Source of the DNA: a virus
Lineage: Duplodnaviria; Heunggongvirae; Uroviricota; Caudoviricetes
Reading direction: 5' to 3' (one strand)
IMG/VR virus record: IMGVR_UViG_2558860161_000002
Length of the DNA stretch: 39,245 nt
In this document: one piece after another, positions 2,929 to 39,245 of the stretch
How positions within the stretch are numbered: the stretch's first letter is position 1
Layout: each line of letters starts with the position of its first letter
Made by a program: the position numbers and the translations under genes
Notes under the pieces: generated by a model
What the model was told of the DNA's origin: nothing
Databases searched by the model: none
The model's input: the letters and a program-made list of their open reading frames with translations, nothing else

Positions 2929-2955
2929 ATCCTCAATCCCGGTAATGACTCCAAC

Positions 2956-3459
2956 TTATTGATAGTGTTTTATGTTCAGATAATGCCCGATGACTTTGTC
3001 ATGCAGCTCCACCGATTTTGAGAACGACAGCGACTTCCGTCCCAGCCGTGCCAGGTGCTGCCTCAGATTCAGGTTATGCCGCTCAATTCGCTGCGTATAT
3101 CGCTTGCTGATTACGTGCAGCTTTCCCTTCAGGCGGGATTCATACAGCGGCCAGCCATCCGTCATCCATATCACCACGTCAAAGGGTGACAGCAGGCTCA
3201 TAAGACGCCCCAGCGTCGCCATAGTGCGTTCACCGAATACGTGCGCAACAACCGTCTTCCGGAGCCTGTCATACGCGTAAAACAGCCAGCGCTGGCGCGA
3301 TTTAGCCCCGACATAGCCCCACTGTTCGTCCATTTCCGCGCAGACGATGACGTCACTGCCCGGCTGTATGCGCGAGGTTACCGACTGCGGCCTGAGTTTT
3401 TTAAGTGACGTAAAATCGTGTTGAGGCCAACGCCCATAATGCGGGCTGTTGCCCGGCAT
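2956..3459 (-). CDS. insB: IS1 InsB reading frame (normally expressed as an InsAB' frameshift fusion)
   Basis: 167-aa ORF overlapping insA 3' end, identical to the insB ORF of the IS1 at 29493..30260. Confidence 0.9.
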
Positions 3460-3653
3460 CCAACGCCATTCATGGCCATATCAATGATTTTCTGGTGCGT
3501 ACCGGGTTGAGAAGCGGTGTAAGTGAACTGCAGTTGCCATGTTTTACGGCAGTGAGAGCAGAGATAGCGCTGATGTCCGGCGGTGCTTTTGCCGTTACGC
3601 ACCACCCCGTCAGTAGCTGAACAGGAGGGACAGCTGATAGAAACAGAAGCCAC
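3378..3653 (-). CDS. insA: IS1 InsA (91 aa)
   Basis: [46 protein letters not shown]... Confidence 0.9.
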
Positions 3654-3708
3654 TGGAGCACCTCAAAAACACCATCATACACTAAATCAGTAAGTTGGTA
3701 GCATCACC

Positions 3709-4094
3709 CAAAACTGGATCGCCTTGGTTGTAATGCAATGGATATCAGGAAAACAGTGGAACAACTGACCGAAACAGGTATCAGAGTGCATTGCTTAGCA
3801 TTGGGGGGCATTGACCTGACCAGTCCAACAGGAAAAATGATGATGCAAGTAATTTCAGCAGTCGCTGAATTTGAACGAGACCTTTTACTTGAACGCACTC
3901 ATTCCGGGATAGTAAGAGCCCGGGGCGCAGGGAAACGTTTTGGTCGACCACCTGTGTTAAATGAAGAACAGAAACAGGTGGTATTCGAACGAATTAAGTC
4001 AGGTGTAAGTATAAGTGCCATTGCCCGGGAATTCAAAACCTCGCGGCAAACCATTTTAAGAGCCAAAGCAAAACTTCAGACACCTGACATATAA
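3709..4094 (+). pseudogene. pinQ: Pin-family DNA invertase, C-terminal fragment (continues the 96..308 fragment, which is on the opposite strand)
   Basis: in-frame translation from the IS1 boundary: (K)[32 protein letters not shown]...KAKLQTPDI; first ATG at 3738. Confidence 0.85.
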
Positions 4095-13996: not shown

Positions 13997-14325
13997 CAGT
14001 TCACCACCTGTTCAAACTCTGCGCTGAACTCAACACGCAGCATACTGACCCGCGACGACCATTTTGCGCAGGTCACCTTTATCTGCCGCCACTCATAAGG
14101 CGGCGTCCACAGAAAGGCTTTCCAGCCCCCGTGCTCAGCCAGAAACGACTCCAGCGCCGTGGCCTCCCAACGGGGAACAGAAAACGTCACGCTGTACGTT
14201 TTCAGGTCGGCATTCAGCCCGGCAGGCGCTCGCTGGGAATAGCCATCACCAAAGCGCACTTTCCTGACGGAAGGGGCCGAAGCCACATCCATACCGGGTT
14301 TCACTTTCCAGCGGAAGGTCTTCAT
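13996..14325 (-). CDS. M: minor tail protein M
   Basis: 109-aa ORF MKTFRWKVKPGMDVASAPSVRKVRFGDGYSQRAPAG... Confidence 0.95.
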   Translation of the reverse strand: MKTFRWKVKPGMDVASAPSVRKVRFGDGYSQRAPAGLNADLKTYSVTFSVPRWEATALESFLAEHGGWKAFLWTPPYEWRQIKVTCAKWSSRVSMLRVEFSAEFEQVVN

Positions 14326-16901
14326 CGTCCACCTCCGGAGAACAGACCACCATCGCGCATCTGTGCCTGAATTTCATCACGGGCACCCTTGCGGGCCATG
14401 TCATACACTGCCTTCATCATCTGTGGACCTGGCAGACCATTCGTACCGTCGTTCTGAATCACCACGTGATTGTTCTGATTAAAATTAATGCCTTCAGCCC
14501 GCCGCATCTGCGCCGGACTTCCGGCACCGCCCACATAACCACCTTCCGCATAGCCCCGCATCAGGCGGTACAGGTTGCCGACACCAATTCGGCTGGTTGC
14601 CTCCTTCGTGAAGACAAATTCACCACGGTGAACAATCCCCGCTGGCTCATATTTGCCGCCGGTTCCCGTAAATCCTCCGGTTGCAAAATGGAATTTCGCC
14701 GCAGCGGCCTGAATGGCTGTACCGCCTGATGCGGATGCGCCGCCACCAACAGCCCCGCCAATGGCGCTACCGATACTCCCGACAATCCCCACCATTGCCT
14801 GCTTAAGCAGAATTTCTGTCATCATGGACAGCACGGAACGGGTGAAGCTGCGCCAGTTCTGCTCACTGCCGGTCAGCATCGCCGCCATATTCTGCGCAAT
14901 ACCATCAAAGGTCTGCGTGGCTGCACTTTTAACCTGCGACATACTGTCCGTGGCGCTCTCTTCCCACTCACTCCAGCCGGACCTGAGGCCTGCCATCCAG
15001 CTCCCGCGAAGCTGGTCTTCAGCCGCCCAGGTCTTTTTCTGCTCTGACATGACGTTATTCAGCGCCAGCGAATTATCGCCATACTGTTCCTTCAGGCGCT
15101 GTTCTGTGGCTTCCCGCGCTGCCTGCCGGTCAGTAAGCCCCCGGTTTTTCGCCTCAATGGCTGCCCGTTTTGCCCGTTGTTGCTGTGCGAACTTATCCGC
15201 CTGCTGCGCCAGCGCGTTCAGGCGCTCCTGATACGTAACCTTGTCGCCAAGTGCAGCCAGCTGGCGTTTGTACTCCAGCGTCTCATCTTTATGCGCCAGC
15301 AGGGATTTCTCCTGTGCGGACAGCTGGCGACGTTGCGCCGCCTCCTCCAGTACCGCGAACTGACTCTCCGCCTTCCACAAATCCCGGCGCTGCTGGCTGA
15401 TTTTCTCATTTGCTCCGGCATGCTTCTCCAGCGTCCGGAGTTCAGCCTGAAGCGTCAGCAGGGCAGCATGAGCACTGTCTTCCTGACGATCGCCCGCAGA
15501 CACTTTCACGCCGGACTGTTTCGGCTTTTTCAGCGTCGCTTCATAATCCTTTTTCGCCGCCGCCATCAGCGTGTTGTAATCTGCCTGCAGGATTTTCCCG
15601 TCTTTCAGTGCCTTGTTCAGTTCTTCCTGACGGGCGGTATATTTCTCCAGCGGCGTCTGCAGGCGTTCGTAAGCCTTCTGCGCCTCTTCGGTATATTTCA
15701 GCCGTGATGCCTCAGACTCGGCCCAGTCCTTTGCTGCCATCTCTCTGGCCTTTTCAAGATCGGCCTGCAACGTGGCGGCTGAAAGCCCAAGTTGCGCATT
15801 CGCTCTGTCCTCCCATGCTCCCCGGAGATTGGCAAGAAATGCTGAGGTTTTACCGCGCCGGTGGCTTCGGCTCTGATACCACTGCCATTTTTTGTCCGCC
15901 TCATCAAAAGCCTTTTCTGCTTTCTCCAGCATTCCCTGGGCAGTGTCCGGGCGACCAATATCCAGCACCGAATCCCACATGGATTTGAATGCCCGTGCTG
16001 TCCTGTCTGCCCAGGTCTCCAGCGTGCCCATGTTCTCTTTCAGGCGGCGGGTCTGGTCATCAAACCCTTTCGTTGCGGCCTCGTTCGCCGCCTGCAATGC
16101 CCCGGCTTCATCTCCGGAACGCTGCAACTGAGCAACATACGCAATCTGCTCCGCCGTCACGTTATGGAACTGACGTGCCATCGCTGTCAGTCCCGACGTC
16201 GGGTCTGTGGTCAGCTTCCCGAAGGCTTCAGCGACCTTGTCCACCTCCACGCCGGATGCAGAGGAGAAACGCGCCACACTCTGGCTGATCGCCTCAAACT
16301 GCTCACCACCACGCACACCGGCATTCACCAGCGCCGTCAGTGACTCGCTGGTCTGGTTAAACGTCAGCCCTGCCGCCTGCCCGGCTCTGGACAGGGCCAG
16401 AATACGATCTGCCGTCAGTCCCGCCTGATTGCCGGAAAGGACCAGCGTTTTGTTGAAATCGGACAGGGTTGAGTTGCCCTGATACCAGGCATACGCCAGC
16501 GCACCGGTCGCCACCGCCAGCGAGGTGGCCCCCACCATCGGCAGGGTGATCGCACCGGCAAGCCCCCTGAACATGGGGATCATCCCGCCGAAGGAGTCCT
16601 TAACCTGACCACCCTGTTGCAGCAGGATCAGCCACGGACTTTGCCCGCCTGCAAGCTGCGTGGCCACGTCGGTGAACTGTGCAGGCAGCATACGCATGGC
16701 GGCTTTATACTGCCCGACGGAAATCCCCGCTTTCTGTGCAGCCAGCGCCTGTCGGCTCAGCGACTGTTCAACGACTGCCGCTGTTTTTTTCGCATCAGTT
16801 TCCGTACCGGAAAAATGACGCCTGACTCTGGCCATCTGCTCGTCAAATCTGGCCGCATCCAGACTTAAATCAACGACCAGATCGCCTACCGGTTCAGCCA
16901 T
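14322..16901 (-). CDS. H: tail tape measure protein H
   Basis: 859-aa ORF MAEPVGDLVVDLSLDAARFDEQMARVRRHF..., coiled-coil rich, Gly-rich C-terminal region. Confidence 0.95.
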   Translation of the reverse strand: MAEPVGDLVVDLSLDAARFDEQMARVRRHFSGTETDAKKTAAVVEQSLSRQALAAQKAGISVGQYKAAMRMLPAQFTDVATQLAGGQSPWLILLQQGGQVKDSFGGMIPMFRGLAGAITLPMVGATSLAVATGALAYAWYQGNSTLSDFNKTLVLSGNQAGLTADRILALSRAGQAAGLTFNQTSESLTALVNAGVRGGEQFEAISQSVARFSSASGVEVDKVAEAFGKLTTDPTSGLTAMARQFHNVTAEQIAYVAQLQRSGDEAGALQAANEAATKGFDDQTRRLKENMGTLETWADRTARAFKSMWDSVLDIGRPDTAQGMLEKAEKAFDEADKKWQWYQSRSHRRGKTSAFLANLRGAWEDRANAQLGLSAATLQADLEKAREMAAKDWAESEASRLKYTEEAQKAYERLQTPLEKYTARQEELNKALKDGKILQADYNTLMAAAKKDYEATLKKPKQSGVKVSAGDRQEDSAHAALLTLQAELRTLEKHAGANEKISQQRRDLWKAESQFAVLEEAAQRRQLSAQEKSLLAHKDETLEYKRQLAALGDKVTYQERLNALAQQADKFAQQQRAKRAAIEAKNRGLTDRQAAREATEQRLKEQYGDNSLALNNVMSEQKKTWAAEDQLRGSWMAGLRSGWSEWEESATDSMSQVKSAATQTFDGIAQNMAAMLTGSEQNWRSFTRSVLSMMTEILLKQAMVGIVGSIGSAIGGAVGGGASASGGTAIQAAAAKFHFATGGFTGTGGKYEPAGIVHRGEFVFTKEATSRIGVGNLYRLMRGYAEGGYVGGAGSPAQMRRAEGINFNQNNHVVIQNDGTNGLPGPQMMKAVYDMARKGARDEIQAQMRDGGLFSGGGR

Positions 16902-17328
16902 ACCGGACTCCTCCTGCGATCCCTTCTGATACTGTCATCAGCATTACGTCATCCTCCGTCATGTCCGCCACATCCGGGGAAGCGGGGATAACTTCATTCC
17001 CGTCCGGGCCAAAGCGGACGCCTCCGGCAAGCCCTGCCGCTTTCTGCATCAGCACATCATCTTCAGGCTCTTCGTCAGCCTCGCGCCGGTTCAGCAGACT
17101 GAAATCCAGCGGATGCATATCCGGCTCGCTGAAAAACAGGCTGAGTACGGTGTACGTCAGCCCGGAAAAGTGCATATCCAGCAGAACATCATGAAAATAA
17201 TGGGTACTGTAAAAGCGGTGCCAGTCGGCATACTCCGTGGATGACATCCCGGCAAGCATGGCGCGCCAGTCGGGTCGCCCCATCTCACGCGCCAGTTTCA
17301 GGGCAAAACTCAGCTCACCGTCGAACAC
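16894..17328 (-). CDS. T: T reading frame of the G-T tail assembly chaperone (expressed in lambda by -1 frameshift from G at the G GGA AAG slippery site)
   Basis: ORF ...FDGELSFALKLAREMGRPDWRAM... overlapping the G 3' end; slippery heptamer gggaaag on the minus strand at about 17322..17330. Confidence 0.85.
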   Translation of the reverse strand: MFDGELSFALKLAREMGRPDWRAMLAGMSSTEYADWHRFYSTHYFHDVLLDMHFSGLTYTVLSLFFSEPDMHPLDFSLLNRREADEEPEDDVLMQKAAGLAGGVRFGPDGNEVIPASPDVADMTEDDVMLMTVSEGIAGGVRYG

Positions 17329-17732
17329 TTTCCCGCAGAAACAGGCTCTGCTGGCCCGGCGTCATCTGCCTGTTCAGGTGCATCATTCACAACAAACTCA
17401 GACATACCGGACAGACGCATTACCACATTTTCAGCCTGAGCAATTGCCTCTGTGGGCCAGGTGGTAAGCACTTCCTGCTCAATTTGTTTAACGGCTTCAT
17501 TCATGGACGGCATCTTTGTCTTCTGCGGATGGCTATGCCACAGGGACATCGCCACCAGAAAAGCACCGGTTCTGACGAGATCTTACACGCTCACCTGTCG
17601 ATTGAGACTGGATCCCGCCTGTTCTGCCTGTCGTTTCAGCAGGGCGAGATGCTCAATTCGCTGCAGGGCTGACAGTTCAGAAAGCGTGACGCTCACACCG
17701 TTATATTCAAATGATTCGGTTTTCAGGAACAT
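17310..17732 (-). pseudogene. G: tail assembly chaperone G interrupted by an in-frame TAA (ochre) at codon 50
   Basis: ATG at 17732 gives MFLKTESFEYNGVSVTLSELSALQRIEHLALLKRQAEQAGSSLNRQVSV then TAA (plus-strand tta at 17583..17585); same frame continues ...GAFLVAMSLWHSHPQKT...SAGKCSTVS to the stop at 17310; total 141 codons as for lambda G. Confidence 0.85.
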
Positions 17733-17747
17733 CGCTGACTCTCCGGA

Positions 17748-18488
17748 TTAACTGTCGGTGACGGTGATTTCTGCAACCACAGCAAGTTCACCATTACCGG
17801 ATACAACCGGAATGTTGACCTTGCCTGCAGCAACACCTTTCACGGTGATGGTCATACCACTGACCGACACGGTGGCTTTTGTTTTATCCGCAGACACCGC
17901 ACGGAAGCTCTTGTCGGTTGCGCCTTCCGGCTGGAATGCCACGGTCAGCGTGGTGCTCTGCCCTTTCACCACCGAAGTGCTGGCAGGCGTCACGGTCATG
18001 CCGGTTGCCGCTGTTACCGTGCTGCGATCTTCTGCCATCGACGGACGTCTCACGTTGGTGACTTTCACCGTGCGGGTGATCACTTCCTTCGCCGTCACCG
18101 CCTTACCGATACTGCTGACCCAGCCGCGGAACACATCGACCGTGCCGTTCGGGAAGCGGATTTTATAGGCTCGGGTATCCCCTTCATTAAACCACGCCAG
18201 CAGCGCCTGCTGCCCCTGCTCTCCGGGCATCCACGCCAGCGTGAAGCTGGTATCTCCGGCAGATTTCTGCCCCTGCCCGGTCGCAGTCCAGTCCGCATCT
18301 TCATCATCGAGATAGCTGTCGTCATAGGACTCAGCGGTCAGTTCGCCGGGCGTCAGGTCTTTAACTTTAGCCAGACGCGACCAGTCAACGTCTGAAAGCG
18401 GGTTCGCATAAGGGTCACCGTTCCCCTTATAAACCCACAGTGTGGTCCCGGCCCCTTTCACCGGCATTACTGGATTTGGTACAGGCAT
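17748..18488 (-). CDS. V: major tail tube protein V (C-terminal Ig-like domain)
   Basis: 246 aa from [36 protein letters not shown]... Confidence 0.95.
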
Positions 18489-18891: not shown

Positions 18892-19466
18892 CGCTTTATT
18901 ACCATTCTCAGTTGATGCTGCAGCGCATAGCCCAGCTCTTTCGGAAGACGTTCACGCCGTATCCGTTCAATATTCTGTTTAAACGCCGTGGTAAGCGGCA
19001 CCGCCATCGGGATTTTCACCACATCAATGGGGTAACGGTTTTTCCCGGCCACACGCTGCATGACATGCCACCGGCCATTTTTCAGTTGCTGAATAAACGC
19101 GCCGGGAATACGACGGTTTCCCACCACAAGCACGCTGCCGCCACCTTTCAGGGATGAACGCTGCCCCTTTTTACGACGTCTGCGGCGGGAAAGGACAACC
19201 CGCGCGTTACCCAGCTTGATTACGGGCAAATCCCCCCGGTTAACCCTGATTCTGGCCTGCGGATTTTTGACCGTGGCCCTTTTCAGCCTGGCCCTTTCCT
19301 TTACCAGTTTCCGGCGTACCTTTGTCTCACGGGCAACCTGTGACGCAGACTGCGATATCGCGGATGACGCAACGCGGTTAATGGCCATTGCGGCGGCACC
19401 AGGCACCGCCGTTTTGCTGATACGGCTGAGGTTTTCAACGGCCTGCTCAAGACCTTTTATGGCCAT
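18888..19466 (-). CDS. Z: tail completion protein Z
   Basis: 192-aa ORF MAIKGLEQAVENLSRISKTAVPGAAAMAINRV... Confidence 0.95.
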   Translation of the reverse strand: MAIKGLEQAVENLSRISKTAVPGAAAMAINRVASSAISQSASQVARETKVRRKLVKERARLKRATVKNPQARIRVNRGDLPVIKLGNARVVLSRRRRRKKGQRSSLKGGGSVLVVGNRRIPGAFIQQLKNGRWHVMQRVAGKNRYPIDVVKIPMAVPLTTAFKQNIERIRRERLPKELGYALQHQLRMVIKR

Positions 19467-19477
19467 ACATCCCCCTT

Positions 19478-19831
19478 TCAGCGGCGACGGTTAACGGCAG
19501 GCGGCACGCCACGCCCAAGCCAGAGATGACAGCTTCCGCCATCATCCGGCGAAATCCGGTCCACCCAGAAGTTTTCCTCGCCGATGGTCAGTGTGTCTCC
19601 ACGCCGCAGCTGCCGCACATCATCAGTCCGGACAAACAGGGACGGGCTGGAGCCTTCAACGCGCACCCCCTGTCCGGCATAGCTGATATTTTCAGGGTCA
19701 TCAAAAACACCACGTATCACAGCACCGGACAGCTCACCGGATGTCATGGTGGCTGACGTTCCCATGTACCCGCGTATCGTTTCATCGGCGCGGGCAATGG
19801 CAGCATCGAACAGGTTATCGGAATCAGCCAC
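19478..19831 (-). CDS. FII: head-tail connector protein FII
   Basis: 117-aa ORF MADSDNLFDAAIARADETIRGYMGTSATMTSG... Confidence 0.95.
   Translation of the reverse strand: MADSDNLFDAAIARADETIRGYMGTSATMTSGELSGAVIRGVFDDPENISYAGQGVRVEGSSPSLFVRTDDVRQLRRGDTLTIGEENFWVDRISPDDGGSCHLWLGRGVPPAVNRRR

Positions 19832-23002: not shown

Positions 23003-23022
<20 letters not shown>
21703..23022 (-). CDS. C: head maturation protease C with the in-frame nested scaffold Nu3; apparent GTG start
   Basis: 439 aa from (V/M)TAELRNLPHIASMAFNEPLMLEPAYARVFF...; GGAGGAG Shine-Dalgarno upstream of the GTG at 23020..23022. Confidence 0.9.
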
Positions 23023-26704
<3,682 letters not shown>

Positions 26705-26730
<26 letters not shown>

Positions 26731-29338: not shown

Positions 29339-29492
29339 TCAAAGCGCCACTACATGAACAGCGGCAGGACCTTTAGGTCCGTTCTCAATACCAAATTCAA
29401 CTTCCTGATTCTCAGTTAATGTTTTGAAATCGTTGCTCTGAATTGCTGAGAAATGGACAAACACATCTTTGCTGCCATCTTTCGGCGTGATG
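29339..29492 (-). pseudogene. cspI: cold-shock protein CspI, C-terminal fragment (gene interrupted by IS1)
   Basis: translation [50 protein letters not shown] directly abutting the IS1 left inverted repeat. Confidence 0.85.
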
Positions 29493-29547
29493 GGTGATGC
29501 TGCCAACTTACTGATTTAGTGTATGATGGTGTTTTTGAGGTGCTCCA

Positions 29548-29823
29548 GTGGCTTCTGTTTCTATCAGCTGTCCCTCCTGTTCAGCTACTGACGGGGTGGT
29601 GCGTAACGGCAAAAGCACCGCCGGACATCAGCGCTATCTCTGCTCTCACTGCCGTAAAACATGGCAACTGCAGTTCACTTACACCGCTTCTCAACCCGGT
29701 ACGCACCAGAAAATCATTGATATGGCCATGAATGGCGTTGGATGCCGGGCAACAGCCCGCATTATGGGCGTTGGCCTCAACACGATTTTACGTCACTTAA
29801 AAAACTCAGGCCGCAGTCGGTAA
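29548..29823 (+). CDS. insA: IS1 InsA
   Basis: 91-aa ORF identical to the insA of the IS1 at 2941..3708. Confidence 0.9.
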
Positions 29824-30245
29824 CCTCGCGCATACAGCCGGGCAGTGACGTCATCGTCTGCGCGGAAATGGACGAACAGTGGGGCTATGTCGGGGCTAAA
29901 TCGCGCCAGCGCTGGCTGTTTTACGCGTATGACAGGCTCCGGAAGACGGTTGTTGCGCACGTATTCGGTGAACGCACTATGGCGACGCTGGGGCGTCTTA
30001 TGAGCCTGCTGTCACCCTTTGACGTGGTGATATGGATGACGGATGGCTGGCCGCTGTATGAATCCCGCCTGAAGGGAAAGCTGCACGTAATCAGCAAGCG
30101 ATATACGCAGCGAATTGAGCGGCATAACCTGAATCTGAGGCAGCACCTGGCACGGCTGGGACGGAAGTCGCTGTCGTTCTCAAAATCGGTGGAGCTGCAT
30201 GACAAAGTCATCGGGCATTATCTGAACATAAAACACTATCAATAA
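29742..30245 (+). CDS. insB: IS1 InsB reading frame
   Basis: 167-aa ORF identical to the insB of the IS1 at 2941..3708. Confidence 0.9.
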
Positions 30246-30260
30246 GTTGGAGTCATTACC

Positions 30261-38938: not shown

Positions 38939-39245
<307 letters not shown>

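Follow-up and report, generated by a model that had tools for sequence, protein, structure and literature searches.

The tail assembly chaperone gene G in the stretch of DNA analyzed here (39,245 nucleotides, IMG/VR record IMGVR_UViG_2558860161_000002, referred to below as the window) carries a real stop: the gene has become an unremarkable nonsense pseudogene, part of a cryptic prophage of Escherichia coli that is itself decaying. We consider it very probable that a spontaneous G-to-T substitution changed GAA to TAA at codon 50 of a lambda-type G gene in a Qin-type defective prophage, that both gpG and gpG-T were lost, and that lesions accumulate in an element that is not selected for virion production. 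The stop itself is already known from public annotation, where it appears as an "internal stop" in strain KMi029 and as a 49-residue protein in strain KTE73.

Gene G lies on the minus strand at 17310..17732 and comprises 140 codons plus TGA, broken at codon 50. Translation of the window from the ATG at 17732 gives 49 sense codons (MFLKTESFEYNGVSVTLSELSALQRIEHLALLKRQAEQAGSSLNRQVSV), followed by an ochre TAA at 17583..17585 (minus strand) in place of GAA (Glu50). The same frame continues past the stop for 90 further sense codons (DLVRTGAFLVAMSLWHSHPQKT...SAGKCSTVS) and closes with a TGA at 17312..17310. The mutated base is window position 17585, a T on the minus strand and an A on the plus strand, and the base after the stop is a G (TAAG). 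The in-frame ochre codon that the original prediction had placed at 17583-17585 is therefore seen on the minus strand at 17585..17583, and the peptide strings given there for G match the translation exactly. Its total of 141 codons, as in lambda G, also holds when the stop is counted, lambda G being 140 amino acids long. What the ORF list retains of the gene's start is a leftover 49-amino-acid N-terminal ORF (17583..17732, minus strand), the sole product to be expected from normal G initiation.

Both halves of the interrupted frame match the same profile, PF06894. The N-terminal 49 residues match model positions 1-48 (E = 2.6e-19, 69.7 bits) and the C-terminal 81 residues match positions 61-125 (E = 2.2e-25, 89.4 bits), while the stop-repaired protein scores 186.5 bits (E = 1.9e-55; cut-off, 27 bits). 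Because both halves match a single Pfam model and the 423-nt gene is one base off an intact allele, the stop is not simply one that a random frame would show by chance, and the two halves are one gene. The PF06894 match of the repaired protein, the location between V and T/H, and the ~94% DNA identity to lambda over G-T together mark the gene as an orthologue of lambda G. No unbroken frame leads from the G start codon to the slip site, the TAA intervening at codon 50, and this interruption makes the gene a pseudogene of the PF06894/PF06223 family rather than a working member. A PDB sequence search with gpG returned chance-level matches only (E > 0.2).

The neighborhood of G corresponds to that of G and G-T in lambda: the gene occupies the same position between V and H, has 140 codons, and leads through GGGAAAG into a T frame at -1. 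In lambda, T is reached by a -1 frameshift from G. The slippery heptamer GGGAAAG, located by script, is intact in the window at 17328..17334 on the minus strand (G GGA AAG in the G frame), a few bases away from the position of about 17322..17330 originally proposed for it. The nonsense codon does lie 5' of this site, as had been claimed, with the TAA 83 codons upstream of the heptamer. The T reading frame, -1 relative to G (16894..17328, minus strand), is open to 16894 and free of stops; it matches PF06223 (E = 4.3e-14, 53.1 bits; cut-off, 25.9) and is 100% identical to its copy in 1008S19. The fusion modelled across the slip site reads ...PVSAGKVFDGELSF.... In RefSeq and PGAP annotation, T is entered as a free-standing CDS with a GTG start at 17328, which is probably an annotation convention and not a real product. 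The gene order is V, G, T, H, all on the minus strand, so that G sits between the major tail and tape measure genes. Both neighbors are intact in the window: the tape measure gene H (14322..16901, minus strand; 859 amino acids), client of gpG and gpGT, according to the ORF and CDS comparison, and the major tail protein gene V (17748..18488, minus strand), partner of the T domain, with 0 amino acid differences from 1008S19. The lambda G/GT slippery heptamer is likewise GGGAAAG (Table 1 of PMC3296357).

The mutation can be polarized. Over its 423 nt, the window G gene differs from an intact allele (WP_000479193.1, present in ATCC 8739, MLI104K1, and phage PhiR11_1) by a single base, at 17585, where the coding strand changes from G to T and GAA (Glu50) becomes TAA. 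The ancestral G is also found on the coding strand at this position in 1008S19, LT883142, N9, and C9. Lambda G differs at 48 bases across the gene and yet encodes Glu at codon 50; the alignment to lambda gene G that the original prediction had proposed thus gives the same length of 140 amino acids and the same ancestral residue. Since Glu50 is present in lambda and in all outgroups, TAA is the derived state and a true nonsense mutation. BamHI (GGATCC) and BglII (AGATCT) sites near the stop, seen by eye, were considered as a hint of engineering and rejected: AGATCT does not overlap the mutated base, and the natural intact allele, with its single difference at 17585, therefore has this site too.

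We searched for further carriers of the TAA allele by megablast, using a 41-nt query with the mutated base at its center. Any 28-nt seed word taken from this query includes that base, and only carriers of the T can therefore match. The search found the allele in one of 5,426 complete E. coli genomes, that of KMi029, and in none of 50,697 phage records. In a larger protein collection, the exact 49-amino-acid product is encoded on 254 contigs (421 index blocks) with NCBI, ENA, and Logan as sources, and the intact 140-amino-acid G protein on more than 1,000 contigs. All seven carrier loci retrieved via the 49-residue protein have the stop at codon 50. One JGI metagenome contig carries the exact 33-mer of the TAA allele; the same 33-mer had no match among the GTDB species representatives, which hold one genome per species and are thus uninformative here. 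The 49-residue protein is deposited as EOV79107.1 from E. coli KTE73 (GCA_000408465.1) under the label "phage minor tail protein G," and KTE73 scaffold KE137120.1 contains a 6.5-kb stretch that is 100% identical to the window, including the IS1/cspI junction. The window stems either from KTE73 itself or from one of its clones. In KMi029 (NZ_CP147109.1), gpG corresponds to WAZ84_RS11335, a PGAP pseudogene described as "phage tail assembly chaperone G, internal stop," and the G sequence is identical. KMi029 differs from the window by SNPs and by a different IS1 arrangement, and the terminase start-codon change described below is absent from it. The G stop base is no sequencing error, and it marks a sub-lineage.

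The prophage is lambdoid and sits at ydfJ; the window covers its late half, and the early region lies beyond the window. The accessory and flanking genes are ynfT, ydfK, pinQ, tfaQ, nohA, ynfO, ydfO, gnsB, cspI, rrrQ, cspB, cspF, ydfT, relBE, flxA, and ydfW, and the genes of the window map one-to-one onto annotated loci of 1008S19 and KMi029 that bear Qin gene names. We identify the host element as the cryptic E. coli prophage Qin in a long version. Qin of strain K-12 (1632277-1652745 in NC_000913.3) has the same junction at ydfJ' and shares with the window the gene order ynfT, ydfK, pinQ, tfaQ, stf ... nohA, ynfO, ydfO, gnsB, ynfN, cspI, continuing through rzpQ, rrrQ, ydfR, ess, cspB, cspF, ydfT, ydfU, rem, hokD, relEB, ydfV, flxA, and ydfW. 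However, nohA abuts stfQ in K-12 Qin and genes A through J are missing, whereas the window has a full lambda-like head and tail block of ~21 kb. The window also differs from K-12 Qin in its lesions, namely the G ochre codon, a +1 insertion in B, loss of the A start, IS1 in cspI and pinQ, and an inversion. In 324 complete genomes, at least 80% of the window's first 25 kb is present.

The early regions of the relatives are also damaged. In 1008S19, int, xis, exo, dicB, dicA, dicC, and the replication genes have been lost in an IS1-linked deletion, and G and all 22 late genes are intact. The corresponding part of that genome (NZ_CP147050.1, 2477000-2481000) has IS1 in rspB followed directly by nin-region remnants. 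The early region of KMi029 contains several pseudogenes and a partial IS. The element is thus probably a grounded, defective prophage.

The position of the stop suggests how tail assembly would be affected. Ribosomes starting at the ATG at 17732 would stop after 49 residues, 83 codons before GGGAAAG. Laboratory lambda G amber mutants likewise carry nonsense upstream of the slip site, with both products lost; the window nonsense is instead natural, an ochre, and located in a chromosomal cryptic prophage, whereas those mutations are ambers in a viable phage stock. Lambda tail assembly requires gpG together with gpG-T, the -1 frameshift product made at GGGAAAG, at a ratio of ~30:1 (PMC3296357; PMC5009743). 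The tape measure protein gpH is bound by gpG and by the G part of gpG-T, the T part binds gpV and starts its polymerization, and both gpG and gpG-T are absent from the virion (PMC3296357; PMC5009743). In this scheme, gpG would keep gpH soluble while the T domain of gpG-T would recruit the tail tube protein gpV. Extrapolating from this published work, neither gpG nor gpG-T would be made from the window allele, tail assembly would not start, and the element could at best yield tail-less heads. The original prediction that the stop abolishes both G and the G-T fusion is supported to this extent, with termination preceding the slip site and both products needed in lambda (PMC3296357; PMC5009743). 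Removal of both products by nonsense upstream of the slip site resembles the engineered stop in TP901-1 gpG::Ter, with which capsids are full, tails are missing, and aggregates form that are thought to consist of tape measure protein (PMC4493119). In a prophage free of selection for virions, the G stop could persist and later lesions could pile on; these would include the portal +1 insertion, the terminase start loss, the IS1 insertions, and the H or FI stops of other carriers.

We surveyed such lesions by testing each 1008S19 CDS against its window counterpart. In the portal gene B (23003..24605, minus strand), GG has become GGG at window position 24178, a +1 insertion that splits the gene into ORFs of 147 and 393 amino acids. 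This insertion is common to KMi029, whose portal PGAP calls "frameshifted" and which is the sole complete genome with the B +1 as well as having the G stop. The CDS comparison further revealed that the start codon of the terminase large subunit gene A (26728..26730, minus strand) has changed from GTG to GTA, and the same base converts a Glu of Nu1 to Lys. The A start loss is private to the window/KTE73 group, where it is present in independent assemblies. Gene callers place the start of A either at an ATA two codons downstream (639 amino acids) or at an ATG 60 codons downstream (581 amino acids).

Insertion sequences have also reshaped the window. Comparison with relatives locates one IS1 in cspI (29492..30260), with a target-site duplication, and another in pinQ (2941..3709). 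The pinQ copy and a partial IS1 at 1-94 bound the segment 95-2940 (pinQ', ydfK, ynfT, ydfJ'), which is inverted relative to both 1008S19 and K-12; an IS1-mediated inversion fits this arrangement. Where the window has the inversion, KMi029 has lost tfaQ and the 5' part of pinQ in a deletion next to an IS1. An apparent IS5 terminus, its terminal repeat recognized by eye, lies at the right window end in the ydfW region (about 38940-39245). The 39 kb contain four IS copies, counting this putative IS5 terminus.

Relative to the outgroups LT883142, N9, and C9, eight changes in 24.8 kb are derived on the window lineage. Those in common with KMi029 are a missense change in stf, the G ochre codon, a synonymous change in V, a missense change in D, and the B +1 insertion, while a missense change in lom, the A start loss, and one silent change in ynfR are private to the window. 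Most of the seven G-stop carrier contigs also have the B +1, and three have a stop at codon 701 of H. One G-stop carrier combines an intact portal with a stop at codon 16 of FI, indicating that the G stop predates the B +1. Among these carriers, which were chosen via G and hence form a biased sample, the G stop appears to be the oldest late-gene lesion seen in the lineage. N9 has an independent stop, at codon 54 of gene M (N9 locus 19288-19617). The lesion pattern is that expected of unconstrained decay.

One further carrier, GCA_026283425.1 (RDNQ01000031.1, 1-7453), has had its head module replaced from mid-Nu1 to the 5' part of E. The replacement genes encode a D5-type primase, an SSB, a second E-like capsid protein, a decoration protein, AlpA, and a small-terminase-like protein, and the junction lies inside E. 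By its gene content, this island looks like a capsid-forming PICI-type satellite that recombined into the prophage beside the tail genes. The complete genomes PK13 and 23CRST007 likewise have a "DNA primase family protein" under their matches.

Three alternatives to spontaneous nonsense mutation in a defective prophage deserve consideration. The rarity of the allele, found in a single one of the 5,426 complete genomes, is what would be expected if a sequencing or assembly error had produced the stop and the true base were G in an intact gene. This has virtually no chance of being correct: KMi029, set apart from the window by SNPs and by its IS1 arrangement, has the T as well; the 49-residue product occurs on 254 contigs from several sources; the seven carrier loci all stop at codon 50; and a G-to-T substitution outside a homopolymer is atypical of assembly artefacts. 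The error reading is effectively refuted, and a miscalled base at 17583, which the original prediction had named as grounds for doubt, cannot be reconciled with the allele in KMi029 and the exact product on those contigs. Its other reservation, that G might naturally end at codon 49, fails as well, given that the retrieved references are all 140 amino acids long and that the T occurs in no phage record. Alternatively, ochre suppression, readthrough, or in-frame reinitiation could bypass the stop and supply enough G- or G-T-like protein for the locus to function as a tolerated split gene. In-frame starts do exist downstream of the stop (GTG at 17555, ATG at 17549, and ATG at 17513), gene callers predict a 67-amino-acid C-terminal ORF in carrier contigs, and the slip site and T frame remain intact. 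We nevertheless regard bypass as extremely unlikely. No tRNA genes were found in the 39-kb window, no Shine-Dalgarno match is visible by eye at normal spacing in the printed sequence upstream of the first restart candidates, and of the 125 conserved chaperone-domain residues, at least 59 would be missing from any restart product. The base after the stop is G, a context in which TAA terminates efficiently in E. coli. Moreover, the TAA allele is present in 0 of 50,697 phage records, and carriers gain further knockouts in B, H, FI, and A, which would be unexpected were the module functional and selected. Programmed readthrough of a recoded gene finds no support either, as the stop is not conserved among complete E. 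coli genomes or phage records, the references all have Glu50, and the window has no tRNA gene.

The remaining alternative accepts the stop as real but holds that inactivation of G, and later of B and A, was positively selected, which we judge very unlikely. A selected G knockout might benefit the host by avoiding a self-activating chaperone-sensing defence of the Avs type or by denying tails to recombining capsid-forming satellites, a scenario that is itself very improbable; if true, it would explain why every sampled carrier has the G stop despite differing other lesions. Avs17 is reported in a preprint to sense tail assembly chaperones by their N-terminal core (PMC12803255). In one carrier, the tail module is joined to a capsid-forming-PICI-like island. 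However, the 49-residue fragment retains the N-terminal part of G. We know of no external support for adaptive loss other than the Avs17 report. Knockouts make up two of the six coding SNPs on the window lineage, in addition to one indel, and three of the eight derived changes fall in essential genes. When neutral rates are derived by enumerating every single-base change possible in the 22 late genes (3.4% nonsense and 0.23% start-codon loss), the probability of at least two knockouts among six is ~0.018 (about 0.02) under equal-rate neutrality. The window was chosen for its G stop, however, and given that choice, the probability of at least one knockout among the other five is ~0.17, which is not significant. 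We therefore rejected the knockout excess as evidence of selection, its nominal P of 0.018 being nonsignificant after allowing for the choice of window. Independent late-gene stops in other hosts (M in N9, FI, and H) fit random decay, and the missense-to-synonymous ratio of 3-4 : 1 equals the neutral prediction.

Spontaneous nonsense mutation followed by unselected decay gives the G stop a modest meaning. Loss of G would have little biological consequence, the prophage being multiply damaged and probably defective for other reasons as well; the pseudogene label of G is confirmed, with little importance beyond annotation. The long Qin variant of KTE73-like strains would be expected to make no tails and, with its portal and terminase lesions, no packaged heads. 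The nested lesions form a datable decay series within one E. coli lineage, which begins with the G stop, proceeds to the portal +1, and then to either the H stop or the loss of the A start, with IS1 events in addition. Possible uses of this series are as lineage markers and as a small natural data set on the speed at which morphogenetic genes erode in a grounded prophage.

A metagenome contig, SKEM01015690.1 (about 17920-18180 of the window), combines the TAA allele of G with a lambda-type 3' part of V. It has nine differences from the window, all of which lie in gene V and match lambda, and on this account we rejected it as an independent origin of the TAA allele. Either recombination or a chimeric assembly accounts for the contig.
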